Below are positions 1,806-54,819 of a stretch of 64,000 nucleotides of DNA, piece by piece (within the stretch, counting starts at the first letter, position 1; every line of letters starts with the position of its first letter). The stretch comes from an uncultured virus (IMG/VR IMGVR_UViG_3300042934_000354) (taxonomy: Duplodnaviria; Heunggongvirae; Uroviricota; Caudoviricetes). The position numbers were made by a program, and so were the translations under genes. Where the stretch lies: IMG/VR virus record IMGVR_UViG_3300042934_000354; one strand, 5' to 3'. The notes under the pieces are model-generated. The model worked only from the letters and a program-made list of their open reading frames with translations. It had not been told where the DNA came from and did not search any database.

Positions 1806-1879
1806 AAGGGTATTCCGCAAATTGCGGAGTGCCCTTTTTATATACAAAAACTAACAGGGACCCTCTGGGGTCCTTTTTG
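1806..1879 (+). terminator. Two tandem intrinsic terminators
   Basis: GGGTATTCCGC-aaatt-GCGGAGTGCCC-TTTTT and GGGACCCT-ctg-GGGTCC-TTTTT. Confidence 0.65.
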
Positions 1880-1900
1880 CATGCCAAAAGGAGGGTTAAA

Positions 1901-3505
1901 ATGTCCAGCATATTCAACACGGACGCCTGGAAAAAGGCTGTGCAGACGTACAAATCCAAGTCTCCAACCCCGTCTGTACCTTCAACGCCGATTGGTGCGC
2001 TTGCGGGAGTGAGCCAACCTGCACCGCAGCCAACACCCGCCACACTTCCGCCAGCAGCAATACAGGCCGCCAGCAACGTGAGGTCCGGTAAAATGTCTGT
2101 ACCAACAGTCCCGGAATCCGCAAAGGTCGCAGCGCAGAAGATGGTAACCAGGACATCCCAGCAACCTCGTACTGAGCAAGCACTGTCGGCACAGGCGGAT
2201 CTCGTGAACACACCGTTCAGCTACGACCCTACCTCTGATCCGGCCTATCAAGCAGCACTACGGGCCGCACAGCAGACGCTTGAGGTAAACCAGAAGAATA
2301 CAAACGCGCAGCTACGTGCTACGGGGCAGGGAAAATCCTCTTACTCCGAAACGGTAGCCAATCAGTTAGCGAATCAAAGTTCGGAGAACATCGCAAATAA
2401 CGTATTACCGGTATACGCGCAGCAGGCCTACCAGCAGTACCAGGACAGCATCGGCAACCAGCGTAACCTGTACAGTGACTACAACCAGCAGGACTTCCAG
2501 AATCCGATTACAGAGTCCAGCGTAACCGGTAATTATATGCCTGCCGAAGCAACTGCAGCCTACAAGCAACTAATAGCTAATAAGCAAGCCGCAGAGTCAC
2601 CAACGATCACCCGGGATGAACGTGCAGCCATCAGCAGCGAAACGGACGCACTCCGGGCCACGCTGAAGCGTCTTGGCATTGATATCAGCGGACTGGGTGC
2701 AGATAAGACATCGGCACAGGCAGGGGCGGTTAATCCAGGTATTCGCACACTGGCCGGACAGAACCAGGACTTGGCTGCAAGCAATCAGACGTTCAATCAG
2801 AAGCTTTCCACGCGGCAGCAGGACTTTAACGAAGGGATCACAATGGCTGATCTCACTGGATCTATCAATGGTAAGGCAACCACGGCAGAGCAGCAGCGGC
2901 AACTCACAAATCTCTGGACCGTGGCTGAACAAACCGGAACAATACCAGATACATTGGCCGATCAATATGGCATCCCACGGGGAACACAGACTCAGTCAGC
3001 GAAACAACTCGCAGCTCAAATTGCGAATGATGTTCGTGGGCTCGACATATCACAGCAGAATGCAGACACATCACAAGCCAACGCAAGCAGCAGCATAACC
3101 GGTAACACGTTCAACCGATACCTTGATATCTGGAAGGCCACCGGAACCGCGCCATCCGGATTAGAGGCGTATGGTGTAGAGGCTGGATCTCCGTGGTACG
3201 AAGGTGCACAAAACATTAAAGAAGGCGGGTTAACTGTTAACCAAGTAATTGACAATGTTAAATCTTTGTATCAGGAACCCATTACTAGGAAGGAAATAGA
3301 TCCTTCCACTTTAAAAATGATAGAAACAGATACAGGCAAAACAAAGATAACTTCAGACCCGGCTCAAAGGAAAAAAATGTTCGACAATGTAGTCGATTCC
3401 GGTTTAGGCAATAACGAAACGCTTCAAGCCCTGAATTCACTCGGATTTACTAAAGCCGAAATCCAAAAGTTTTACGATGAAGGAATCCAATCATCGGGGG
3501 AGTGA
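1901..3505 (+). CDS. Putative internal virion/DNA ejection protein (Q/A-rich)
   Basis: AGGAGG SD before ATG 1901; homolog of 45038-46546 (FSYDP.DPAYQAAL, IRTLAGQNQDLAA); position matches podoviral ejection genes. Confidence 0.7.
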   Translation: MSSIFNTDAWKKAVQTYKSKSPTPSVPSTPIGALAGVSQPAPQPTPATLPPAAIQAASNVRSGKMSVPTVPESAKVAAQKMVTRTSQQPRTEQALSAQADLVNTPFSYDPTSDPAYQAALRAAQQTLEVNQKNTNAQLRATGQGKSSYSETVANQLANQSSENIANNVLPVYAQQAYQQYQDSIGNQRNLYSDYNQQDFQNPITESSVTGNYMPAEATAAYKQLIANKQAAESPTITRDERAAISSETDALRATLKRLGIDISGLGADKTSAQAGAVNPGIRTLAGQNQDLAASNQTFNQKLSTRQQDFNEGITMADLTGSINGKATTAEQQRQLTNLWTVAEQTGTIPDTLADQYGIPRGTQTQSAKQLAAQIANDVRGLDISQQNADTSQANASSSITGNTFNRYLDIWKATGTAPSGLEAYGVEAGSPWYEGAQNIKEGGLTVNQVIDNVKSLYQEPITRKEIDPSTLKMIETDTGKTKITSDPAQRKKMFDNVVDSGLGNNETLQALNSLGFTKAEIQKFYDEGIQSSGE

Positions 3506-3924
3506 TAAGCCCTACGGCTTCGGCTAGTGGGGCTAAATCAAACCAATATTTAGGCGGAACACTTAAAGACAAGGGAGACGTATTTGAAGCAGCAGCAGCA
3601 AAAGAGGGTATCGACCCTGCATTGTTAAAAGCTATTGCGGTACACGAAACAGGAAATGGAACTAACCCAGGTTCTAAAAATAGGAACAATGTGGGCGGCA
3701 TGATGCGCTCAGACGGCAAAGGGCAGCAGAGTTTTGAAAGCATTGATGAAGGCATCTATGCTCTGGCGTCCTTGTTAAGACGGATGTACATCAGTCAGGG
3801 GTTAGATACAATTGAGAAGATTCAAAAGCGATATGCACCGAACGGTGCGGCTAATGATCCAACTAATCTAAACAGTTACTGGACGAGTGGAGTTAAAAAG
3901 TACTACGACTTATTCTCGAAGTAG
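3502..3924 (+). CDS. Peptidoglycan hydrolase domain (GH73 glucosaminidase-like), probably expressed as a -1 frameshift extension of the upstream gene
   Basis: AIAVHETGNG...NNVGG...F.SI.EGI...KRYAP...W motifs; no well-spaced SD. Confidence 0.7.
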   Translation: MISPTASASGAKSNQYLGGTLKDKGDVFEAAAAKEGIDPALLKAIAVHETGNGTNPGSKNRNNVGGMMRSDGKGQQSFESIDEGIYALASLLRRMYISQGLDTIEKIQKRYAPNGAANDPTNLNSYWTSGVKKYYDLFSK

Positions 3925-3934
3925 GAGGTGAACC

Positions 3935-6900
3935 ATGACACTTGATTTCGAAGCACTACGCAAGAAACGCGGCGTGACCACTTCAGGAACAGGGGAATTT
4001 GATTTTGATGCATACCGCAATCGGAAAGTTACTGAAACGCCGGATGTTGAAAGAGTAACCGTTAACCCTATCTTGAAGAGTACGCTCAGTGGAGTGGGGA
4101 TCGGTGAAAAGCCAATGGAATTCCCTACTTATAGCCGTGCTGTTACGCCGAAACCAGAACCGAAAAAAGAAGAAAAAAGCACACTGAGCAAAGTCCTGGA
4201 TAACGTCAATGCATTTACGGACCGTGCAGCGAGCGCCACGACATTCGGCGGTACCGACCTTGTGGATCGATTGTTTGAGAAATTTGGACCTAAAGCATAT
4301 AGTGACGAGCTTAAAGAAAAAAGAGAGCGTTCCGAAAACCTTGGAGCAGCTGGGGCCGCAGCAGATGTGCTCGGCTCTCTGGTAAGTGGGCAGGCGGCAT
4401 ACAAGGCGGCAGGTGCGGCAGTAGATCCTTTAATCAAAACGTTACCTAAATTGACACAAAGTTTGATACGTGGAGGCGCTGCCGGTGCGGCGTTTGAATT
4501 TCCGCGGCAGGCTAATCAAGAAGCTGCGGAGTACCTGGGTGGAGCGCAGCAGAGTGTCCCGCAGCGCCTTAAAAATGTGGGCTTATCGGCGGCTCTTGGC
4601 GGTCTCACTGATTTAGGTATTGGCGCAGGCGGTCTCGCTGCATCTGGGATCAAGAACCCTGTGCTTGGTAAAGCGGTGGGCGGCGGTATCGGCGTAGGTA
4701 GCTTGGGCGCTGCACTGGGACTTGCAAATGAAGTCCAAGAAAAGGCGTCAGGACAACAACAATCTTTTGGTGGCAGGCTGGCGGATATCGGAAAGTACAC
4801 ATTGGCCGGGGCTGGATTAGGGATTGCTGGAGGTACAGCGGCAGCTACATTTATGCGTAACAAAGGTGTTCCGGAAGAAACGATTGCTGAAGTTCTCGCG
4901 CTACCAGAAGGACGCGGAACGATCCGTCAATCGGCTGCAGCTGAACGTGCCAGCGTACCGGCCGGAACTGATCCAATCATTAACCCATCTGACTTTACTC
5001 CGGAACCTCTGGGATTGCCGCAAGGTAACACTGTGGGGCCGACTGTGGCGCGCCGGGCAACGCAGACGAATGTTTATCGGCAGAAGTTTGAGAACCTCAT
5101 AAGAGAGGCACAGAAGCGTGAATTCAGCCCGGGACGCGAGGACATCGAGCTTGAAAACCTATGGTCTCAGATGGCTGAACGCAACGATCCGGGCTTAGAT
5201 GAACTGGTAGATCTGGCCTATCCGAAGCGCACCAATGTGCCACAACGAGGTATGGTTGGCGCGGCCAGGTCAAATCAGGAAATGCGTGAAGTGGCAGGAG
5301 TGGGCAATCCAGTCCGGAGCAGTGCCGACCGTAACCCTTCACAGGTGATCAGCCCGGCCGCGGCACCACAGACAGTTGCCGGACGCGCCGGAGGTACACC
5401 GCGAGCTGAAATATCTAGTATTCCGGATGTTCCTGTTTCTTCAGCACCGAGACAGCCCGTCCAGGAAAATGTTCCAACCCAAGCCATGAGCCGGGAACAG
5501 GACATCATGAATCGTATTAACAATTTGACACAGGATGATATTGAATACATCCAAAGTGGCCAGTTTGATCAGACGAAGTTACCTCCGGAAGTCTCGTCTA
5601 TCAGCAGACAGGAGCCAGCGGTAAGAGAACAAACTCCACTTGTAGATGCTGCTCCGGATGTAAATGCTCAACCGCAGAGCCAGGACATGTTCACGGATCT
5701 GTTCGGCGATCAGGGGTTAGGCATTTCATCCGGAGGAAGCTCAGCAAGAGTCGGTTCCGGACCGGTAGACACCGCAGATCAGATTGTCCGGCGCGGTATC
5801 AAGAACGACAAGCAAGGCATAAAGCAGGCGGCGGCAGCACAGGCTCGGGCGACCTATCAGAACCTTGTCGATAACCTTGATCCATTAAAACGGATCAGCG
5901 GTGACACATATGAGTCTGCTATGGATGCCACCCGGGCCAATAACCTTGCAAATACTGTTGTTCGTGACAAATTCGTGAATCTTGAAGGCGAAGTGATCGG
6001 CAACAGTTTGAACGATATCTTTAAAAAAGTGGCGCGGGGACAGGATAAGAACTTTATTGATTACCTCACGCTGCGACATGCAAAAACGCGCATGGCCCGG
6101 GGAGAACGGGTGTATGCAGAAAACCTTGATATGACTCCGGATAAGGTGCAGCAGCGCATCGACACATTAAACTCCCGTTACCCTGGATTCGAAGAGATCG
6201 CGAAGGAATGGGATAAATTCAATGATAACGTGCTGCGGGAGATCGGCGTAAAGGAAGGGTTGCTCTCGAATGAACTGTACAATGCGCTGCGGAAGAAGAA
6301 TCCGAATTACTCCCCAATGCGCCGGCAGTTCCTTCGTTCAGAAAAGCCCGGAAAGAACTTCATCCAGAAGACAACAAAATCATCATTCAGCGGTCAGAAA
6401 GCACCAATTCAGCAAGTCAGTCCTACCGGGTCCGTCCGGAACATCGTAGACCCGCGCAAATCCACCATTGAGTCCGTGGGCGCATGGACTAATGCAGCCC
6501 TACGTAACCGGACGATGCAGTCTATGGTAGATGCGATCAAGCGAGATCCGGAGGCATTCAAAGGTGTCGCTGAGATCATCCAGCAGCCGAAGAGTAAGGT
6601 GAATCTCAAGGATGTACTCACCAATGGTGGTCAGGACGACTTCTTAGAAGCGCTGGATGCAGACTTTAAGGACCTGTTCAGCACCGCAAAGGTAGACGGT
6701 GATAATGTAGTTCGAGCAATGGTCAACGGGGAACCGGTACACATCAAGGTACAGGATCCGGAGATTGTCAAAACGCTAATCGGCATGGGTCCACAGGCTT
6801 CCAACATCCTTATTGACACCATGTCTGCATTTTCTAACGCGACCAAGCGCGGTGCAACCGGTCTGCTGGCCCCGGCTTTTGCCATCAAGGGAGCGACAAT

Positions 6901-10578: not shown

Positions 10579-10632
10579 ATCGTGTGCGAATTGATATCTA
10601 TGGAAAACCGTACATAACAATCTACACACGAT
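10579..10632. other. attP-like serine-integrase site, central dinucleotide AA
   Basis: 54-bp imperfect palindrome ATCGTGTG...TTGATATCTATGG-AAAA-CCGTACATAACAA...CACACGAT abutting the integrase stop. Confidence 0.75.
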
Positions 10633-12116
10633 TAATTGAAAATAACACTCTGAATAGACGCCGGAATGAACTTTCCTTTCTTGCCATGTGCTTTATCGAG
10701 TGGTGTGTATAACGTGATTTCCTTGAAGATATCCAGGATCATTTCATGCTTATCTACATCATCCATCTGGTCCCATACTTCAGGCAGGCCGAATAAGATT
10801 TCATTCTGCTCTGCAAAATCCTCTATGTGCACATCCGGCATTTTAGCGAGCTCATCCATCAGCAATTCCTCATTCTGCTTTTCATCGGCGTTGTGATCCC
10901 GCAGTTCCTCTTGGGAGATCAAATCATCGGCATACATACGCTGCCACTTCTTGCGCCGGTCCCGGACCTTATCTAGCTCTCTTACCAGATCCTTGCGCAG
11001 ATCAACCACCGGATCTTCTTCAGCCGTTGCGGCCAATTCCCGGATCGCTGAATAATCTGTGGATAACCTTTCGCCAATCCATTCCAGCAGCAGCGACTCC
11101 ACCAACTCCTGGCGAAACATTGGCATGGTGCATCCTTTACCAGTCTGGCGCCCGGAGCAGATATAAGACAGAATCTTATTGTAGCTGCCATCCTGGCGTT
11201 TGTTCTGGTGGTACCGGCCGGACATCTTCCCGCCGCACTTGCTGCACTTCAGCACACCGCTGAACCAGTATTCCCGAACCTTAGAGTGTCCGGTGAATGA
11301 TCGGCGCTTCATTTCCTCTTTGTGCTCCTGATACTCTTCCCAGGTAAAGGTTAAATCCTGTGTCCCATCCACGATCAGTACATCAACGTGCTCTTCCATT
11401 TTCCGATGTGCGTATTTCCCATTTGCTTTTTTAGTCCCGTATCTCCGTTTGCCTGCATAGTAAGGATTATCCAGTACATACCACACACTGAAGGAGGTCC
11501 ACCGGTACCCGCGCCGCAGCAGGCCCATATCGTTCAGTTTGGTTGCCACGCCTTTTAGTCCCAAGCCCTCCAAGTAAAATTTCCTTACCAGCCGATTCTG
11601 CGTGTATTCCTCTTGTACAATCTTTTCAAATTTGTCATACCCGAAGTTAACCGGACCGCCCGGACGCCGACCATCGTGGACCATCTGCTCCATGCCCATG
11701 CGTACGCGCTCTGCTGTGTTCTCACGCTCCCACTGAGCGATATCAGCCACTAGCCGGATAAATAGTCTACCTGTCGCTGTGCGTGTCTCAAACGACTCCG
11801 TACAGCTCTGAAACTTGACGTTATGGGACTCGAACATCTTGATGAGGTTATCGCAGTCACTGGCGGACCGGGTCATACGGTCAAGCTTATACACCAACAC
11901 CACATCAAATGCATGTATCTCCACATCTTTAATCATACGCTGCATCTCAGGGCGCTTCAGATCCTTTGCAGACCACCCATCATCTATGTACACCTCAGTG
12001 ACTTCCCAGTCCTGAGAATCGGCGTAGGCCAGCAGCCGGCGCTTCTGTGCGTCAATCGAGAATCCTTCAGCTGCTTGCTCGTCTGTAGATACCCTGATGT
12101 ATATTCCTGCTTTCAC
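10632..12116 (-). CDS. int: Large serine recombinase (integrase)
   Basis: YIRVST catalytic motif, VYKLDR.TRS, recombinase domain, CSKCGG zinc ribbon, coiled coil. Confidence 0.96.
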   Translation of the reverse strand: MKAGIYIRVSTDEQAAEGFSIDAQKRRLLAYADSQDWEVTEVYIDDGWSAKDLKRPEMQRMIKDVEIHAFDVVLVYKLDRMTRSASDCDNLIKMFESHNVKFQSCTESFETRTATGRLFIRLVADIAQWERENTAERVRMGMEQMVHDGRRPGGPVNFGYDKFEKIVQEEYTQNRLVRKFYLEGLGLKGVATKLNDMGLLRRGYRWTSFSVWYVLDNPYYAGKRRYGTKKANGKYAHRKMEEHVDVLIVDGTQDLTFTWEEYQEHKEEMKRRSFTGHSKVREYWFSGVLKCSKCGGKMSGRYHQNKRQDGSYNKILSYICSGRQTGKGCTMPMFRQELVESLLLEWIGERLSTDYSAIRELAATAEEDPVVDLRKDLVRELDKVRDRRKKWQRMYADDLISQEELRDHNADEKQNEELLMDELAKMPDVHIEDFAEQNEILFGLPEVWDQMDDVDKHEMILDIFKEITLYTPLDKAHGKKGKFIPASIQSVIFN

Positions 12117-27761: not shown

Positions 27762-27776
27762 GGGGGAGAAGAGGAT

Positions 27777-28124
27777 ATGAGCGAATGGATGACAGGCCAC
27801 TTAAATATCGGCAAGAAAATCACTGTGTACGGTAGAAATGCTATGAGTTGGGGAGTAAATATCCAATCAAAGAAATACGGATATATTTGCTTCAGATTAC
27901 CTTTCAGGTGTTTCGGCAGATGGGAACCACTTTACTTTTACTGCAGCCCTAATGCAACTCCTTGGGCGGCAACGTTCATGATAGGTAAAAAGCATGACAG
28001 CCGTGATTGGGCGTTATCTCGGGTTCGCCGGGTGGCACTAGGTCATAACTTCTATTACGATTCCGAAAACGATGACAACGGAAATTATGCAAGGCTGCGA
28101 CAAATAAACGACAGGGTGCTATAA
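27777..28124 (+). CDS. Hypothetical protein
   Basis: SD; 115 aa. Confidence 0.65.
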   Translation: MSEWMTGHLNIGKKITVYGRNAMSWGVNIQSKKYGYICFRLPFRCFGRWEPLYFYCSPNATPWAATFMIGKKHDSRDWALSRVRRVALGHNFYYDSENDDNGNYARLRQINDRVL

Positions 28125-44936: not shown

Positions 44937-45037
44937 TAATCAAAACCTATTGACCCCACATGCTACACTGAAATAAATAACAGATCGGCCAGAGGACTCC
45001 ATACGGGGTCCTTTTTCTATTGCAAAGGAGTGAGAAG

Positions 45038-46546
45038 ATGGCGACAACGTTAGGAAATGGCGTAGTGGACTACAACACAGCCGCAGCAGAAGCCAAGAAG
45101 AAACTCGTGCAGAATCAACTAAAGATCAACAATGATCCCGGATATGTAGCCAGTGAGCAGCAACGAGCCTTACAGGTGATTGCGCAGCGACAAGCACAGG
45201 GACTGGACACCAGCGGCCAACAGAAGTACCTCACGCAGCAGCTTGGGTACAAAGCTCCGGCAGCAACTACAACCGCAGCACCGGCAGCGCCAGCGGTCGC
45301 AGCGCCTAAGACAAATGCACAGCAAGGATCTGATTACATGGCACAGATGGCGGCTATAGCTAACCGTCAGGTCACACCGTTTTCGTATGATCCCGAAACT
45401 GATCCAGCCTACCAAGCAGCATTGAAACGAGCCAGCGCGAATATTGATGCTGGAACCTCGCAGGTACAAGCAGAAATGAATCGGAGAAATATTCTGAATA
45501 GTTCTATCACGACTGATAGATCCGCAGAAATAGGTGCTTTAGAAAAAGCTAACGTGGAGACAACCGTCCTACCGCAGCTGATGCAGCAAGCTTACCAGAA
45601 ATATGCGGATCAATTGGCACAAGAGCAGCAGCAGTTCGCTAACCTTGGCACTGTAGCGAATTCCTACCTCAGTGAGGATCAACGTGCTATCGATAACACC
45701 AATACCACCGCAGGGCTCACGGGTAACCTGCCGGGCGGCGAGCAGGCGCAGCAGCTTTACTCTCAACTAATGTCCCTGAAGCAGCAGGCCGAGGCTAAAG
45801 GCATCACCGCAGCAGACCGCAGCAAGTTAAGCAATCAGGCTGACGGTATCCGGGCTATGCTGTCTACCATGGGCGTGGATATCAGCAAACTGGGAGCGAA
45901 TACAAACTCCGTCACAGCAGGACAGATCACACCAACTATTCGCACGCTGGCCGGACAGAACCAGGACTTGGCAGCACAGAATCAGACATTTAACCAAGCC
46001 ACTCAGACCCGCCAACTGGATACAGCGGATAAGCAGTACGGTGAACAGTTTGCTTACACTAAAGCGCGTGATGCCATCTCTGATAAGCAATGGCAGGCTA
46101 AGTTTGACGAGGATGTACGACAAAACGGCCTGAGTTATGGCCTACAGCAATTGTCACAGCAGAATGATCAGGCATACCGTCAAGCTCAATTGGCGCTCTC
46201 CCAGGACGATAACGCCCGGGCATGGGCTACGCTTGATTATGACCAGTCACAACCGGGATCAACAAAGACCAGCAGTTTAACGCCTAACCAAGTATTAGAA
46301 AGTGTGAAATCATTGTATTCTGAACCTATTTACACGACAGGAACAGAATATGACGCTAATGGTGAATTGGTCCAGAAAGATACTGGAAAAACAAAAATCA
46401 CAACAGATTCTGGGAAAAGAAAACAAATGTTTGAAACTGTTGTTGACTATGGGCTAAGTGATTCAGAGACCAATCAAATTCTTTTATCACTTGGCATGAC
46501 CAAGAAAGAAATTGATTCACTCATTAAGCAATATTCGGGGGAGTAA
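45038..46546 (+). CDS. Putative internal virion/DNA ejection protein
   Basis: SD before ATG 45038; homolog of 1901-3505; ends TCG GGG GAG TAA. Confidence 0.72.
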   Translation: MATTLGNGVVDYNTAAAEAKKKLVQNQLKINNDPGYVASEQQRALQVIAQRQAQGLDTSGQQKYLTQQLGYKAPAATTTAAPAAPAVAAPKTNAQQGSDYMAQMAAIANRQVTPFSYDPETDPAYQAALKRASANIDAGTSQVQAEMNRRNILNSSITTDRSAEIGALEKANVETTVLPQLMQQAYQKYADQLAQEQQQFANLGTVANSYLSEDQRAIDNTNTTAGLTGNLPGGEQAQQLYSQLMSLKQQAEAKGITAADRSKLSNQADGIRAMLSTMGVDISKLGANTNSVTAGQITPTIRTLAGQNQDLAAQNQTFNQATQTRQLDTADKQYGEQFAYTKARDAISDKQWQAKFDEDVRQNGLSYGLQQLSQQNDQAYRQAQLALSQDDNARAWATLDYDQSQPGSTKTSSLTPNQVLESVKSLYSEPIYTTGTEYDANGELVQKDTGKTKITTDSGKRKQMFETVVDYGLSDSETNQILLSLGMTKKEIDSLIKQYSGE

Positions 46547-46962
46547 CGTCCGGCGTAGCATCCGTTAAGGTGCCGACAAAATACGCCGGAGTAATATCGT
46601 CGGCAACAAGTAAGTATGGACTACCAGATGGGTTGCTTGCTGCTGTCGCCAGTGCGGAGTCTAGCTTCAATCCTAACGCAACCAACAGCAAGAGCGGAGC
46701 CTCAGGCATGTTCCAGTTCATGCCAGCGACAGCCAAGGGCTACAATATTGATCCATACAACGTGAATCAAGCTGCAGACGCCGCTGGGAAAATGTTGAAC
46801 GGACTCATTGCCAAGTATGATGGAGATGTTTCCAAAGCACTGGCAGGCTACAACTGGGGCGGTGGGAATGTAGACAAGGCAGTAAAGAAATACGGCAACA
46901 ATTGGTTACAACATGCGCCTACAGAAACAAAGAACTACATCAAAAAAATATTAGGACGGTGA
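46543..46962 (+). CDS. Lytic transglycosylase (SLT/GH23) domain, probably a -1 frameshift extension
   Basis: AESSFNPNA...GASGMFQFMP.TA...ALAGYNWG...ETKNY; frame open from the slip site; no SD at GTG 46570. Confidence 0.85.
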   Translation, partial: VTSGVASVKVPTKYAGVISSATSKYGLPDGLLAAVASAESSFNPNATNSKSGASGMFQFMPATAKGYNIDPYNVNQAADAAGKMLNGLIAKYDGDVSKALAGYNWGGGNVDKAVKKYGNNWLQHAPTETKNYIKKILGR

Positions 46963-46966
46963 GGAA

Positions 46967-49900
46967 ATGGCCACTTTTGACGCAGTTCGCAATCGAAAAA
47001 GGGGTGAAGAGGCCAAGCAGCGCGTGCTGTCTCGGACCTATTCACCTGCAGAGGAACAGCCAGAAAGTTCATTTTCTGCCGTCCGTAATCGAAAGGTTAC
47101 AGATACAACATCTACAGACTCAGCAGAATCATCCAGAACAAAGGAGATCCTTGGTGACACACTGGCAGGAGTCGGTATTGGTTCACAGCCGCAGGGATTC
47201 AACACTACTCCGGATCCGCAGAAGACGATTGATTTCAAAGCAGAACAATCTAAGAAAAACGCATCTGTATTTCAGGATAAGCTACCGGCCGCCAACCTGA
47301 TCCAAACCGGCCAGGGAGTTCAATCCACACTGAAGGATAAAGTTCCAGCAGCCAACCTCGTGCAGCAGACCGGACGCGGACCGGCTAATGCTTCAAACAT
47401 CCCTGGAGTTTCGCAATATGAGATCACCAAGAAAGAAATAGCCAACGACTCTGTGCCGTACGCAGTTAAAGCATACGCGAATATCATGAACTACATCACA
47501 CAGGGTAATCCAGCAGTGGTGGCGGTGTCCCGGGCTTTTGCTGGTAACTCTGGTGCGACCCGTAGAGACACTACAAAATTCCCTGTAATTGACAAGGTGA
47601 CCGATGCAATTAACAACTTTGTGACACCTTTTGTGACACCTACAGGTGCGCCAGTGGGCCAAGGCATTATCGGATCAACGTATGGAGCGACAGAGAAGGC
47701 GTTGAGCGGTAAAGCTGGGCAATCCATTCTCAACGCAGCTAGCAAAGTTATTCCGGGTTCACAGAACGTTGCGCGTGTGACAGCCACAGAGGCGCTTGCA
47801 GGCGGCATGCAGGGTGTAGGATTCGGGCTGCAACAAGGACAAGACAGCGGCAACGAAATCGCCCGTAACGCCCTCTTAGGGACCGCGGCAGGCGGTGTAC
47901 TTGGTGGTATAGGCGCTGCAGCCAGCGAAGGACTCACATCTGCACTCAGCAAGATCATGAAGAGATCCGGCCGGGCAGATGATGAAGTCGCCGCAACGCT
48001 GGAAGAAGTATTTACACCTCGTCAGGCGGAGATTGTACCGCAAAGCGAAATCAGAAATAACCTGCCTGAAACGAATCCTTTAGCTCTGCCACAATCACCT
48101 GAACTGTTGGCACTACCACCTGGACGAAGTACAGCCACGACAGCACGTATTGAACAACGTACCAACGTGTACCGGCAGAAGTTCGAAAACCTTATTGCTG
48201 AAGCACAAAAGCGTCCATTAACACCGGGTCGCGAAGACTTGGAACTGGAGAACATATGGTCCCAAATGGCTGACCGCACGGATCCAAGCCTCAACGAACT
48301 GATTGATCTGGCTTATCCGAAACGTACCGCCGTTCCGCAGAAAGGTATGGTCGGCGCGGCCCGAGCCAATCAAGAAATGCGCGAGGTGGCAGGTGTAGGA
48401 AACCCAGTTAAAAGTTCAGCTCCGCAGGTGTTTGCTGATGCTGCTGCACCAACGCAGGTATTGGGCAGAAGGGGTTCGGTTGGTACGTCATCCGAAGGGA
48501 CGATCAGAAGCAGCACTTTGACGCGTGAACAGGAAATCATGAACAAGGTCAATGCAAAGCAGCCTCTGACGCAAGCAGACATTGAGTTTGCCCAAAGTGC
48601 GGAGTTTGATAAAAACAAGTTATTCCCTGAGTCCACGCCTGAGAAATCAACCTATGCCAAAGCGAGACCAGCACAGCCGGAAGTAAAGTCACCTTCTAAG
48701 CCAGAACCGGTAATGAAATCAACTCCGAAAAATGAGGTTCAGGAAGTTGAAGAAGCTATCAAAGCTGTCAATCAGCCTAATGTCCGGGACAAGGTTTACT
48801 CTTACCTGGATGAAGCAGAAAAGGCAGCTAGAGAGCGCATAGCCAAGCGCAAAGGATATCTGAACTCCAGTCCTTTGCCGGAGTGGGCGGACTACGCGGT
48901 GATTATGGCGGCCAAACTCGGTAAGGGAACAATCAAGGTCGCGAACTTCACAGAGGAACTGGTTAAGGAATTCGGTGAATCTGCCCGGCCACATGCAGAA
49001 AAAATACTTCGTATGAGCCGGGAGGAACTGCGTAAACAGGAACGATTGGCGAGTAAAGAAGGTAAATCAGCAGTTGAATTCAATGCTAAACCTGAAGGTG
49101 ATGCCGCCTCGTTCGCTGAGAAAATCAGCCGTAACGCACCGAAAAAGTCAACTCCATTTGCGGAACGGTGGCAAAAGTGGCGTACACAGACTACAGACGA
49201 CCTAGCAGCCTTGGAGACGGTCGAAAAGAACGTTCGTGGTGGAAAGTTATCCAGCGCAGAAGACAGCCTTTATAAGGCAGCTAGAATGTTCAAAGGAGCG
49301 CCGGAACGTGCCAGCCAAATTGTGCAGGACCGATTAGGATCGGTAATCAATAAGGTTGAACAGGCCGGAAACTCCGTGGAGGACCTAGAATTGTATGCTC
49401 TTGCTAAACATGCACAGGATGTGAATGCAGCCGGATATAAATCTGGATTTACTAACCAAGAAATCAAGTCCATTCTGAATGAATTCGGATCTGATGAAAT
49501 GAAAGCAGCACAGCAAGAACTGGTTAAGGTAAACCGCGATATGCTGAAAGAATTGTTGGACAGTGGGGTAGTTTCACAAGAACTATATGATGTGCTGGGC
49601 GAACGTTGGAAGAATTACATTCCGTTGTTCCGAGAAATGGATAATGAAAAGGTAGGGTTCGGCGATGGACTGTCGAGCGCACTTGCCAATGTAACCAGCC
49701 CGATCAAGGCGCTGCAGGGGTCGGAACGAAAGGTCATTGCACCACTGGAAAACATGGTGAAGAACATCTTCCAGAGTGTTAATGCGGCAGAACGAAACAA
49801 GGTGGCTCAGCAGATTACGAAGCTTGCTGAACTGGACGAGAACGGGACATATATCCGCAAACTCACCAATGCTGAACAAGTTGGAGAGAAAAACGTAGTC

Positions 49901-51514
49901 AAGGTTAAAGTCGATGGCAAGGAAGTTCGGTACGAGGTGCAGCCAGAGGTATACAAAGCTCTGATGAACCTTGATCAAGAGTCCAGTAATACGCTGATGA
50001 ACATCCTATCTAAGCCTGCCAGTCTACTACGTGCCGGAGCTACCATAACACCAGAGTTCGCGCTTCGAAACCCGATCCGAGATATTAACAACGCCTTTGT
50101 TGTCTCAGAGAGTGGCTTCAATCCTATTACTGACTTTGGTGCCGGTCTGATACAGACAATCAAGAAGGGACCTCTGTATAAGGACTGGATTGATAACCTG
50201 GGAGCTTACGGTAATACACTTTCGCTGGATAGAAATGTCCACAAAAAAGCCTTAGAAACCGTACTGAAGCAGCCAAATTCAAAGAAATTTGTCAATTTGG
50301 TGAATGGAAAATCACTCATCGGACTGCTGAGGTCGATTTCAGACACAACCGAATCAGCAACTAAGGTCGGAGAGTACCGGGCTGCGCTACGTTCCGGCGC
50401 GAGCAAACAAGAGGCAGCGTATCGTTCGAGGGATTTGATGGACTTTGCCAGGGCAGGATCTAGCATACGCCCAACTAATAGAATAGTTGCTTTTTTGAAT
50501 GCAAACATTCAGGGGAAATCAAAACTTATCCGAGCTATTAAAAACGATTGGGTTGGCGTTACTACTCGAGGGATTGTATCGGTAACGGTTCCGACAATTG
50601 GGATATTCATCTTGAACCACAAGTATGCTAACGATACACAGAAATCCACCATCAGCAACGCCCCGGACTGGATGAAGGATTCATTCTGGTTGATGGCCAT
50701 ACCTGGAACGGATACAGTAGCGCGAATACCAAAACCATTCGATCTGGCAACATTGTTTGCAAATTTGCCAGAAAAAGCACTGTCTTTTGTTTTGGATAAA
50801 GATCCTGAAGCATTCGATGGATATGTAAGGCGATCTATCAAAAGCAATGCTTTACCAACCCAAATATCCGGTATACTGCCAGTAATTGAAGGGATGTCTA
50901 ACTATTCATTCTTTAAGGAAGGATCAATTATTCCTAAGGCAGAGCAAGGATTACAGTACAAAGACCAGTACGATCCGGTTCGCACCACATCTACGGCCCG
51001 GATTATTGCGGGAGGAGTAGATAAATTGACCGGAGGAAAGGGATCGTTCAAGAACTTCAGCTCTCCGCGGGTGATCGATAATACACTGCAGGGCCTGACG
51101 GCTGGACTTGGTAAATATGCCACCGATGCCATTGATATCATTCTTGATAAAACAGGAGCATATGAACGAACCACAAAGCCAGCAAAGTCCATTGAACAAG
51201 CGCCGTTCACAAGATCGTTTCTGGTTGATCCAAATCAGGGCGGCAAGGCTATGGATAAATTTTATTCATTGAAAGACAAACTCACGAAGGAAAAGTCTTC
51301 CTCCAAACTGAATAAGGTTCCGTTCAAAAAACTGAGCGAATTGGAACGGATCAATAATGTTTCCGAAGTAGTGAGCGACATAAATAAATCGATCAAGGCT
51401 ATAGAACGTGGTGAATTGTCAGCCAAGGAAAAGCAATTAAAGATTGAACCTTTAATCAAACGCCGGAATGACTTAGTGCAGCGCGTCACACAAAGCCTGA
51501 AGGACAAAAAATAA
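46967..51514 (+). CDS. Large ejection/polyvalent protein with LPD38-like region
   Basis: 1515 aa; RDLMDFARAG...FLNANIQG, RIPKPF motifs. Confidence 0.75.
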   Translation: MATFDAVRNRKRGEEAKQRVLSRTYSPAEEQPESSFSAVRNRKVTDTTSTDSAESSRTKEILGDTLAGVGIGSQPQGFNTTPDPQKTIDFKAEQSKKNASVFQDKLPAANLIQTGQGVQSTLKDKVPAANLVQQTGRGPANASNIPGVSQYEITKKEIANDSVPYAVKAYANIMNYITQGNPAVVAVSRAFAGNSGATRRDTTKFPVIDKVTDAINNFVTPFVTPTGAPVGQGIIGSTYGATEKALSGKAGQSILNAASKVIPGSQNVARVTATEALAGGMQGVGFGLQQGQDSGNEIARNALLGTAAGGVLGGIGAAASEGLTSALSKIMKRSGRADDEVAATLEEVFTPRQAEIVPQSEIRNNLPETNPLALPQSPELLALPPGRSTATTARIEQRTNVYRQKFENLIAEAQKRPLTPGREDLELENIWSQMADRTDPSLNELIDLAYPKRTAVPQKGMVGAARANQEMREVAGVGNPVKSSAPQVFADAAAPTQVLGRRGSVGTSSEGTIRSSTLTREQEIMNKVNAKQPLTQADIEFAQSAEFDKNKLFPESTPEKSTYAKARPAQPEVKSPSKPEPVMKSTPKNEVQEVEEAIKAVNQPNVRDKVYSYLDEAEKAARERIAKRKGYLNSSPLPEWADYAVIMAAKLGKGTIKVANFTEELVKEFGESARPHAEKILRMSREELRKQERLASKEGKSAVEFNAKPEGDAASFAEKISRNAPKKSTPFAERWQKWRTQTTDDLAALETVEKNVRGGKLSSAEDSLYKAARMFKGAPERASQIVQDRLGSVINKVEQAGNSVEDLELYALAKHAQDVNAAGYKSGFTNQEIKSILNEFGSDEMKAAQQELVKVNRDMLKELLDSGVVSQELYDVLGERWKNYIPLFREMDNEKVGFGDGLSSALANVTSPIKALQGSERKVIAPLENMVKNIFQSVNAAERNKVAQQITKLAELDENGTYIRKLTNAEQVGEKNVVKVKVDGKEVRYEVQPEVYKALMNLDQESSNTLMNILSKPASLLRAGATITPEFALRNPIRDINNAFVVSESGFNPITDFGAGLIQTIKKGPLYKDWIDNLGAYGNTLSLDRNVHKKALETVLKQPNSKKFVNLVNGKSLIGLLRSISDTTESATKVGEYRAALRSGASKQEAAYRSRDLMDFARAGSSIRPTNRIVAFLNANIQGKSKLIRAIKNDWVGVTTRGIVSVTVPTIGIFILNHKYANDTQKSTISNAPDWMKDSFWLMAIPGTDTVARIPKPFDLATLFANLPEKALSFVLDKDPEAFDGYVRRSIKSNALPTQISGILPVIEGMSNYSFFKEGSIIPKAEQGLQYKDQYDPVRTTSTARIIAGGVDKLTGGKGSFKNFSSPRVIDNTLQGLTAGLGKYATDAIDIILDKTGAYERTTKPAKSIEQAPFTRSFLVDPNQGGKAMDKFYSLKDKLTKEKSSSKLNKVPFKKLSELERINNVSEVVSDINKSIKAIERGELSAKEKQLKIEPLIKRRNDLVQRVTQSLKDKK

Positions 51515-53281: not shown

Positions 53282-53335
53282 ATCGTGTGCGTCTTGATAT
53301 CTATGGATTACCGAAGATAACAAACTACACACGAT
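53282..53335. other. attP-like serine-integrase site, central dinucleotide TT
   Basis: ATCGTGTG...TTGATATCTATGG-ATTA-CCGAAGATAACAA...CACACGAT. Confidence 0.75.
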
Positions 53336-54819
53336 TAATTGAAAATAACACTCTGAATGGATGCCGGAATGAACTTACCTTTTCGGGCATGTGCTTTCTC
53401 AAGAGGTGTGTATAACGTAATTTCTTTGAAGATATCCAGAATCATGTCGTGCTTATCCACATCGTCCATCTGGTCCCATACTTCCGGTAGGCCAAACAGG
53501 ATTTCGTTCTGCTCTGCATAATCCTCTATGTGGACGTCCGGCATTTTTGCAAGCTCTGCCATCAGTAATTCCTCATTCTGCTTCTCATCAGCGTTGTGAT
53601 CCCGCAGTTCCTCCTGAGAGATCAGATCATCGGCGTACATGCGCTGCCACTTCTTGCGCCGGTCCCGGACCTTTTCAAGCTCCCTCGCCAAGTCCTTGCG
53701 CAGATCAACGACCGGATCTTCTTCTGCAGTTGCGGCCAGTTCCCGGATAGCTGAATAATCTGTGGATAACCTTTCACCAATCCATTCCAGCAGCAACGAC
53801 TCCACTAACTCCTGGCGGAACATCGGCATGGTGCATCCTTTCCCCGTCTGCCGGCCGGAACAGATATAGGATAGGATCTTATTGTAGCTGCCATCCTGGC
53901 GTTTGTTCTGGTGGTACCGTCCGGACATCTTGCCCCCGCACTTGCTGCACTTCAGCACACCGGAGAACCAGTATTCCCGAACCTTTGAGTGTCCGGTGAA
54001 TGATCGGCGCTTCATTTCTTCCTTATGTTCCAAATACTCTTCCCAGGTAAAGGTTAAATCCTGTGGACCATCCACAATCAGCACATCCACTTGCTCTTCC
54101 ATCTTGCGATTTGTGTACTTGCCGTTTGCTTTCTTGGACCCATATCTCCGTTTACCGGCATAGTAAGGGTTGTCCAGTACATACCAAACGCTGAAGGATG
54201 TCCACCGATACCCGCGCCGAAGCAGTCCCATATCGTTCAGTTTGGTTGCCACTCCCTTTAACCCCAATCCCTCCAGGTAAAATTTCCTGACCAGCCTATT
54301 CTGTGTATATTCCTCTTGGACAAGCTTTTCATTCTTGTCATACCCGAAGTTAACCGGACCGCCCGGCCGCCGTCCCTCGTGCACCATTTGCTCCATACCC
54401 ATGCGTACACGCTCTGCCGTGTTCTCACGCTCCCACTGAGCGATGTCGGCCACGAGGCGGATAAATAGTCTACCTGTCGCCGTGCGCGTCTCAAACGACT
54501 CCGTACAGCTCTGAAACTTGACATTGTGGGACTCGAACATCTTAATAAGATTGTCACAGTCACTGGCGGACCGGGTCATGCGGTCAAGCTTGTACACGAG
54601 CACCACGTCAAAAGCATGTATCTCCACGTCTTTGATCATACGCTGCATCTCAGGGCGCTTCAGATCCTTCGCGGACCATCCATCATCAATGTATACATCT
54701 GATACTTCCCAGTCCTGAGAATCGGCGTAGGCCAGCAGACGGCGCTTCTGTGCGTCAATCGAGAAACCTTCAGCTGCTTGCTCGTCCGTGGATACCCGGA
54801 TGTATATACCTGCTTTCAC
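53335..54819 (-). CDS. int: Large serine recombinase (integrase)
   Basis: Same length as, and nearly identical to, 10632-12116. Confidence 0.96.
   Translation of the reverse strand: MKAGIYIRVSTDEQAAEGFSIDAQKRRLLAYADSQDWEVSDVYIDDGWSAKDLKRPEMQRMIKDVEIHAFDVVLVYKLDRMTRSASDCDNLIKMFESHNVKFQSCTESFETRTATGRLFIRLVADIAQWERENTAERVRMGMEQMVHEGRRPGGPVNFGYDKNEKLVQEEYTQNRLVRKFYLEGLGLKGVATKLNDMGLLRRGYRWTSFSVWYVLDNPYYAGKRRYGSKKANGKYTNRKMEEQVDVLIVDGPQDLTFTWEEYLEHKEEMKRRSFTGHSKVREYWFSGVLKCSKCGGKMSGRYHQNKRQDGSYNKILSYICSGRQTGKGCTMPMFRQELVESLLLEWIGERLSTDYSAIRELAATAEEDPVVDLRKDLARELEKVRDRRKKWQRMYADDLISQEELRDHNADEKQNEELLMAELAKMPDVHIEDYAEQNEILFGLPEVWDQMDDVDKHDMILDIFKEITLYTPLEKAHARKGKFIPASIQSVIFN

Follow-up and report, generated by a model that had tools for sequence, protein, structure and literature searches.

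A predicted -1 frameshift between a putative ejection protein and a lytic transglycosylase domain in podovirus-like temperate phages

Programmed frameshifts are well known in tailed phages, where they occur in tail chaperones and in a few capsid and tail proteins. Here we describe a candidate -1 frameshift at the end of a gene for a putative ejection (internal virion) protein, found in a 64,000-nt stretch of DNA from an uncultured virus (IMG/VR record IMGVR_UViG_3300042934_000354; Duplodnaviria, Heunggongvirae, Uroviricota, Caudoviricetes). This whole stretch is referred to below as the window. The gene encodes a protein of 502 aa, and the frame that would be entered by the shift encodes a lytic transglycosylase (SLT) domain. 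From comparison of related sequences, we put at about 85% the probability that the SLT domain of the window is expressed via a -1 shift at a run of G residues. A preliminary description of the locus had proposed such a shift, and the comparative genomics reported here supports that interpretation.

The closest described systems share some features with this locus. The tail assembly chaperone frameshift of phage lambda, of the G/GT type and reportedly the subject of work by Xu, Hendrix and Duda in 2004, likewise involves a -1 shift near the end of a structural-module gene and gives rise to a minor form with a C-terminal extension. The heptamers G_GGA_AAG and G_GGA_AAC, the commonest in the family studied here, are of the same type as the lambda slip site. 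Tail chaperone genes encode roughly 100-150 aa, whereas the upstream protein here has about 500 aa and is encoded in a podovirus-like module that lacks the setting of tail tube and tape measure genes. In addition, the extension here is an enzyme domain rather than a tape-measure-binding one, and a strong 3' RNA structure is present. Because neither the context nor the size fits, we do not consider this locus to be a tail assembly chaperone of the G/GT type.

In phage T7, gp16 is an internal core/ejection protein, the largest of the core proteins, and carries an N-terminal SLT domain in frame. As in gp16, the SLT domain described here is on a protein encoded among the internal/ejection genes of a short-tailed phage and is presumed to cut peptidoglycan at entry. 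Unlike that of gp16, it would be reached by recoding only, at the C-terminus of the preceding protein, and the 502-aa protein has neither sequence similarity nor significant fold similarity to the T7 core proteins. The T7/T3 capsid proteins 10A/10B and the capsid protein of Lactobacillus phage A2 involve -1 frameshifts that yield a longer, minor form incorporated into the particle. In those cases the slip occurs right at the 3' end of a gene for a virion protein, as it would here, but their extensions are short or structural rather than a swappable enzyme, and the gene class differs. Escherichia coli dnaX combines a slippery heptamer with a downstream stem-loop at a spacing of 5-6 nt, and its shifted frame ends almost immediately. 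The present locus has a heptamer and a stem-loop at similar spacing, and a few of its relatives use A_AAA_AAC. However, the shifted frame here would add a domain of about 140 aa, whereas that of dnaX yields a shorter product.

The preliminary description knew of no such frameshift in ejection genes. Our literature searches (ejection and internal virion proteins, transglycosylases, virion and tail lysins, Paenibacillus podoviruses) recovered no published description of this frameshift. The PRFect paper cites the lambda G/GT work as a test set, mentions reported frameshifts in lysins, capsid genes and tail genes, and distinguishes motif classes such as 'five'. The portions of its main text that were covered contain nothing on ejection proteins.

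Anatomy and conservation of the junction

The upstream gene ends with TCG GGG GAG TAA (46535-46546), and a run of five G residues (G5) occupies positions 46537-46541. Coordinates of this and other features are given in Table 1. A TTG at 45020 lengthens the upstream open reading frame (ORF) beyond its ATG. The SLT ORF is offset from the upstream ORF by -1. In this frame, a TAA at 46525-46527 closes the sequence upstream, and uninterrupted reading extends from 46528 up to the stop codon at 46960-46962. Any shift is therefore confined to a 19-nt overlap, within which G5 is the sole homopolymer. On direct reading, the slip site, the stop codon, the -1 SLT frame, and the stem and loop complementarity of the preliminary description are all exactly where it had placed them.

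The -1 product is a well-supported SLT domain. It matches PF01464 with 84.9 bits (the cut-off, or gathering score, is 21.3), and the match covers profile positions 3-110 of 117 and residues 20-121 of the extension. It also matches the phage family phrog_342, 'internal virion protein with endolysin domain'. The stretch AESSFNP occurs within the domain; we take it to be the catalytic Glu-Ser marker.

About 170 homologs of the upstream protein were detectable. Among the 120 that were listed, most are about 480-600 aa long, nearly all of those with a named source are from Paenibacillus, and an in-frame SLT domain is present in a single protein (P0077, 704 aa). We compared 92 loci, 20 of them from genomes (18 Paenibacillus and 2 Cohnella) and 72 from IMG/VR. 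The phase of the SLT relative to the upstream C-terminus was determined with tblastn for the 46 sequences in which both parts could be located (45 loci and the window). It is -1 in 43 and in frame in three; the hydrolase is never in the +1 frame.

Most loci have the same organization. A heptamer of the form X_XXY_YYZ abuts the stop codon in 63 of the 92 loci, and X_XXX_NAR does so in another 10. In five loci the slip motif is 1-6 codons before the stop and within the frame overlap, and one locus (L051) has an internal frame change with a canonical motif. Four loci are in-frame fusions (L072, L083, L086 and probably L088, the last judged on its C-terminal sequence only). One (L080) has kept the motif with a -1 ORF of just 25 codons, and this copy may have decayed. 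The four most distant relatives (L089-L092) have no extension. The remaining four loci are cut by contig ends, and two of these still show G_GGA_AAC/G and a stop codon. Overall, an in-phase slip motif followed by a -1 extension of at least 100 aa is present in 79 of 88 assessable loci.

To the survey loci we added eight found via the SLT part of the window and removed duplicates, leaving 63 distinct junctions. All 63 have an in-phase slippery motif. Canonical heptamers account for 54 (GGGAAAC in 36, GGGAAAG in 15, GGGAAAA in 2 and CCCAAAC in 1), and the others are the variants GGGGGAG (6) and TTTTCAR (3). The codon ahead of the first full codon of the heptamer varies, with eight amino acids represented, but its third base is X at every junction. 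In the one locus with C_CCA_AAC, all three X bases have switched together to C. The constant third base and this concerted change argue for selection on the nucleotides rather than on the protein. Most relatives have the textbook heptamer G_GGA_AAC/G and no G-run, which strengthens the frameshift interpretation. The preliminary description had made its reading depend on conservation of the G-run and the -1 phase in homologs. The slip motif and the phase are indeed kept, but G_GGG_GAG itself is a minority form, shared by the window with five other distinct junctions.

Several other forms of the gene end were observed. T_TTT_CAG or T_TTT_CAA abuts the stop codon at L098 (1492-1501), L102 (1483-1492), L106 (281-290) and the gene end of L082. 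The gene ends of L011, L053, L079 and L080 read C_CCA_AAA_AAC, which places a dnaX-like A_AAA_AAC by the stop. In L048, L085 and L087, which have a VgrG3-like extension of about 199 aa, G_GGG_GAG or C_CCA_AAA is found 3-6 codons before the stop. The in-frame fusion L083 still has G_GGA_AAC and a 9-bp stem, CTCCACCAC/GTGGTGGAG (4600-4700). Retention of a slip signal that is no longer needed suggests that this fusion is recent.

RNA structure and proposed mechanism

The region downstream of the slip site is predicted to be strongly structured. The nested fold of 46544-46610 has an energy of -20.5 kcal/mol (z -2.80), and 1 of 200 shuffled sequences was as stable. Across the family, 55-nt segments starting at the stop codon average -18.0 kcal/mol (z -2.4, n = 63 junctions), compared with -10.1 kcal/mol (z -0.06, n = 188) for control segments taken from the same genes 300, 600 and 900 nt further upstream. 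In the SLT subclass to which the window belongs (14 sequences), 93.7% of the stem 1 cells are paired, and five of the nine pairs have changed on both sides.

Stem 2, which would convert the hairpin into a pseudoknot, has an invariant GCCG/CGGC core and two covarying flanking pairs (A-U/U-A/C-G and C-G/A-U). With a register chosen by eye, 74 of 84 stem 2 cells are paired in 12 sequences, a value matched by 1 of 2000 column shuffles. MAFFT misaligns the partners of stem 2, given a 3-nt difference in the length of loop 3, and the arms were re-registered by script. The 70.4% obtained for helix 2 is an underestimate because MAFFT could not align the partner columns. The changes in stem 2 affect the amino acids encoded by either arm. 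The 3' arm is displaced by one codon in four sequences, a shift that speaks for selection on pairing. Of the pseudoknot in the preliminary description, stem 1 and the loop complementarity are exact and stem 1 covaries, but support for stem 2 is moderate. On balance we favor a pseudoknot as the stimulator in the window, at somewhat better than even odds.

We propose that most ribosomes stop at the zero-frame TAA and produce the 502-aa protein (~54 kDa) as the major product. A fraction would move back by one base at the G-run of G_GGG_GAG while held up by the stop codon that directly follows and by the RNA structure 5 nt downstream, comprising stem 1 and probably an H-type pseudoknot. Shifted ribosomes would read 138 more codons in the -1 frame, yielding a minor form of ~640 aa (~64 kDa) with a C-terminal lytic transglycosylase. 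At canonical sites in the family, standard tandem slippage would suffice. At the window site, slippage may be tandem (giving ...SGEV...) or may involve only the P-site tRNA-Gly on G_GGG (giving ...SGGV...). The P-site tRNA-Gly would re-pair perfectly after the slip, whereas the A-site tRNA-Glu would face GGA, with G-C, G·U and A-U pairs if its anticodon is UUC. At T_TTT_CAR, the A-site tRNA would be unable to re-pair, which points to P-site-only slippage with an empty A site. Such slippage could be aided both by the structure that follows and by the proximity of a stop codon. In the particle, the carrier would be packaged and ejected, and a minority of its copies would deliver the wall-cutting domain to the peptidoglycan of the host. 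Natural in-frame fusions (L072, L083, L086 and P0077) indicate that a protein of the long form is functional and that the ratio of short to long forms is not indispensable.

Table 1. Features of the window; positions are those of the 64,000-nt stretch
Feature	Position	Strand	Support
Upstream gene, 502 aa from ATG 45038, mostly alpha-helical, zero frame; putative ejection/internal virion protein	45038..46546	+	ORF and model
Proposed -1 slip site G_GGG_GAG, in phase, abutting the stop	46537..46543	+	Same motif and place in 6/63 distinct junctions
Zero-frame stop TAA abutting the slip site	46544..46546	+	Stop adjoins motif in 73/92 loci
Predicted -1 extension, 141 codons, SLT lytic transglycosylase domain, stop 46960-62	46537..46962	+	PF01464 E 3.9e-24; phrog_2013 'lytic tail protein' E 3.1e-38
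Stem 1, TCCGGCGTA (46549-57) pairing with TACGCCGGA (46582-90), 9 bp, perfect, 5 nt after the heptamer	46549..46590	+	
Putative stem 2 (pseudoknot), loop TGCCGAC (46571-77) pairing with GTCGGCA (46599-605)	46571..46605	+	
Homologous gene of the first prophage, ending TCG GGG GAG and TGA (3503-05); slip site 3496-3502	1829..3505	+	
Hairpin 3' of the first prophage's slip site, AGCCCUAC.../...GUGGGGCU	3508..3534	+	Fold of 3503-3560: -19.4 kcal/mol, z -2.87
Predicted -1 extension of the first prophage, glucosaminidase-type hydrolase in place of SLT	3496..3924	+	PF01832 E 5.6e-9
Next gene, 1515-aa LPD38-domain protein (large polyvalent protein type), candidate ejection protein	46967..51514	+	PF18857 E 7.2e-28
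Serine-recombinase integrase, 494 aa, first prophage	10632-12116	-	
Serine-recombinase integrase, 494 aa, second prophage	53335-54819	-	

Competing explanations

The SLT domain could instead be a separate small protein translated from its own start, GTG 46570, perhaps through translational coupling or through re-initiation once ribosomes have terminated upstream. No other start codon occurs in the early part of the -1 ORF of the window; this GTG is 11 codons in, so that the Pfam-matched region would be retained. GGGGGAG also resembles a Shine-Dalgarno (SD) sequence, and a third copy in the window (27762-27768), 8 nt 5' of the ATG of an ORF at 27777-28124, seems to be used by this phage as a ribosome-binding site. 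However, no start codon is found 5-10 nt after GGGGGAG at either junction of the window, and the GTG lacks a usable SD, as had been noted in the preliminary description: none is present in the 15 nt before it. In relatives, the valine codon is replaced by GCG, GCA, GTA or ACG. Across the family, the first ATG, GTG or TTG of the -1 ORF is between 6 and 438 nt in, its position is not conserved, and an SD-like motif precedes the first possible start in 2 of 58 loci. At the level of sequence, the absence of a conserved independent start codon for the extension is demonstrated. A separate start would also leave unexplained the slippery motif at every distinct junction and the phase that is never +1, and we consider it improbable. 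Still less probable is that the junction is a fusion gene broken by a 1-nt deletion in the G-run, or an assembly error, with the SLT a dead remnant. Homopolymer runs are prone to errors, and in-frame relatives do exist (the three fused loci and the protein named above). Yet the -1 arrangement recurs in 79 of the 88 assessable loci, in many genomes and metagenomes; the extension ORFs are intact (124-210 aa) with recognizable catalytic domains; and most junctions have G_GGA_AAC, which is not a homopolymer. The G5 run is indel-free in two assemblies (depths 51 and 28) of what is possibly the source sample of this DNA. These are contigs of two soil runs that match the window exactly; they are perhaps not independent, and they are blind to expression and to rare indel variants. 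A short contig from run X2 leaves the window sequence at 46516, shortly ahead of the junction, and carries C_CCA_AAC TGA, and a relative with the C-type heptamer thus co-occurs in that soil sample. Transcriptional slippage was also considered and is ruled out as a general mechanism, as most junctions (G_GGA_AAC) have no long homopolymer.

Several observations weigh against the frameshift and its proposed stimulator. The heptamer of the window departs from the strict X_XXY_YYZ pattern, as only its P-site half, G_GGG, re-pairs perfectly, and it is a minority variant. For this site and for T_TTT_CAR the mechanism is therefore uncertain, and efficiency may be low. The four fused loci, the four distant relatives that lack an extension and the one decayed extension indicate that the family can do without frameshifting. 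The loci are also kin, so their counts do not represent independent events. With regard to structure, stem 2 is short and GC-rich, its register was picked by eye, and 115 of 1000 shuffled sequences do at least as well as the stem 2 of the window. Moreover, the commonest hairpin subclass is conserved with compensatory changes at 0 of 10 pairs. A further possibility, to which we assign a substantial but clearly smaller likelihood than to the pseudoknot, is that frameshifting is real and that the stimulator in the window is an extended hairpin without a pseudoknot. The nested minimum-energy fold given above combines stem 1 with an inner helix, GCAUC/GGUGC, whose formation would compete with stem 2; plain hairpins are found in most of the family; and the tests of stem 2 on single sequences are not significant. 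The inner helix, however, relies on a 9-nt insertion restricted to the four closest sequences. Stem 2 occurs at the homologous place in sequences that lack the insertion, and it remains paired through A-U, U-A and C-G replacements that change amino acids on both arms.

Phage context and exchangeable hydrolases

Within the window, two related prophages lie one after the other in tandem (1-21000 and 43000-64000). Eleven repeat families with a spacing of 42.7-43.8 kb and 70-98% identity link the two. Each prophage encodes a serine-recombinase integrase, terminase, portal, major head protein, holin and Amidase_3 endolysin. Family matches link the portal to the portals of SU10 and P22 and a 205-aa protein to the adaptor of SU10, and neither a tail tube nor a sheath or tape measure could be identified in the window. 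From these features, the particle is probably short-tailed. The best explanation for the source of the DNA is a temperate podovirus-like Paenibacillus phage. A search of the GenBank phage collection returned no near-identical DNA and no match to the upstream protein. The SLT part of the window matches 1300 phage records, all below 60% identity, and these are therefore uninformative regarding the junction.

The 502-aa gene is late in the structural module and is preceded by a gene for a tailspike-like protein and several small ORFs. A neighboring 252-aa ORF upstream weakly matches phrog_511, 'internal virion protein' (E 2.6e-9). The gene that follows encodes the LPD38-domain protein listed in Table 1. 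In the podophage phi24B, a giant protein with LPD38 was detected in virions by proteomics, and the authors proposed that it is an ejection protein. The 502-aa protein itself has no Pfam family and no named PHROG family, and an Atlas look-up returned unnamed clusters only. Its AlphaFold model consists of long helices (pLDDT 72, pTM 0.28). No fold match to this model was found in the PDB or BFVD at E <= 0.001, and the T7 ejectosome chains gave values that are not significant (7k5c_A, E 2.0; 7eyb_A, E 3.6). Given the gene context, 'ejection protein' is a reasonable label. Whether the 502-aa carrier is an ejected internal protein, as gene order within a podovirus-like module would suggest, we regard as evenly balanced.

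The upstream gene of the first prophage is homologous, and its junction provides a second example within the window. The two prophages share the variant heptamer and differ in both the stimulator and the hydrolase (Table 1). The sequence GGGGGAGTRA occurs twice in the window, compared with 0.2 copies expected (3 of 100 shuffles reach two), and both copies are at these homologous gene ends. More broadly, the extension may be an SLT (two subtypes), a glucosaminidase-type domain (PF01832) or a VgrG3-like_C domain (PF21277), depending on the locus, and the junction signal is the same.

Tentatively, and at a little short of even odds, we suggest that the slip site, stop codon and stimulator form a conserved recoding cassette at the end of the ejection-protein gene in Paenibacillaceae podovirus-like temperate phages. 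This cassette would be a fixed docking point behind which hydrolase modules (SLT, glucosaminidase and VgrG3-like muramidase) have been swapped, and it would set a sub-stoichiometric number of enzyme-bearing subunits in the ejected complex. In some members, X_XXX_NAR-stop variants (G_GGG_GAG, T_TTT_CAR) would have taken the place of the canonical heptamer and would have to shift by P-site-only slippage next to a stop codon. The family offers a natural series in one homologous context for frameshift efficiency in Bacillota, as it includes canonical, G_GGG_GAG, T_TTT_CAR and A_AAA_AAC sites with hairpins and a probable pseudoknot. If the interpretation is correct, many Paenibacillus prophage annotations would be corrected, since a hydrolase ORF without a start codon is likely to be missed or miscalled. 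A conserved frameshift that adds a wall hydrolase to a probable ejection protein would constitute a new functional class. It would also account for the way in which a limited amount of wall-cutting enzyme is carried in the particle of a short-tailed phage whose Gram-positive host has a thick wall.

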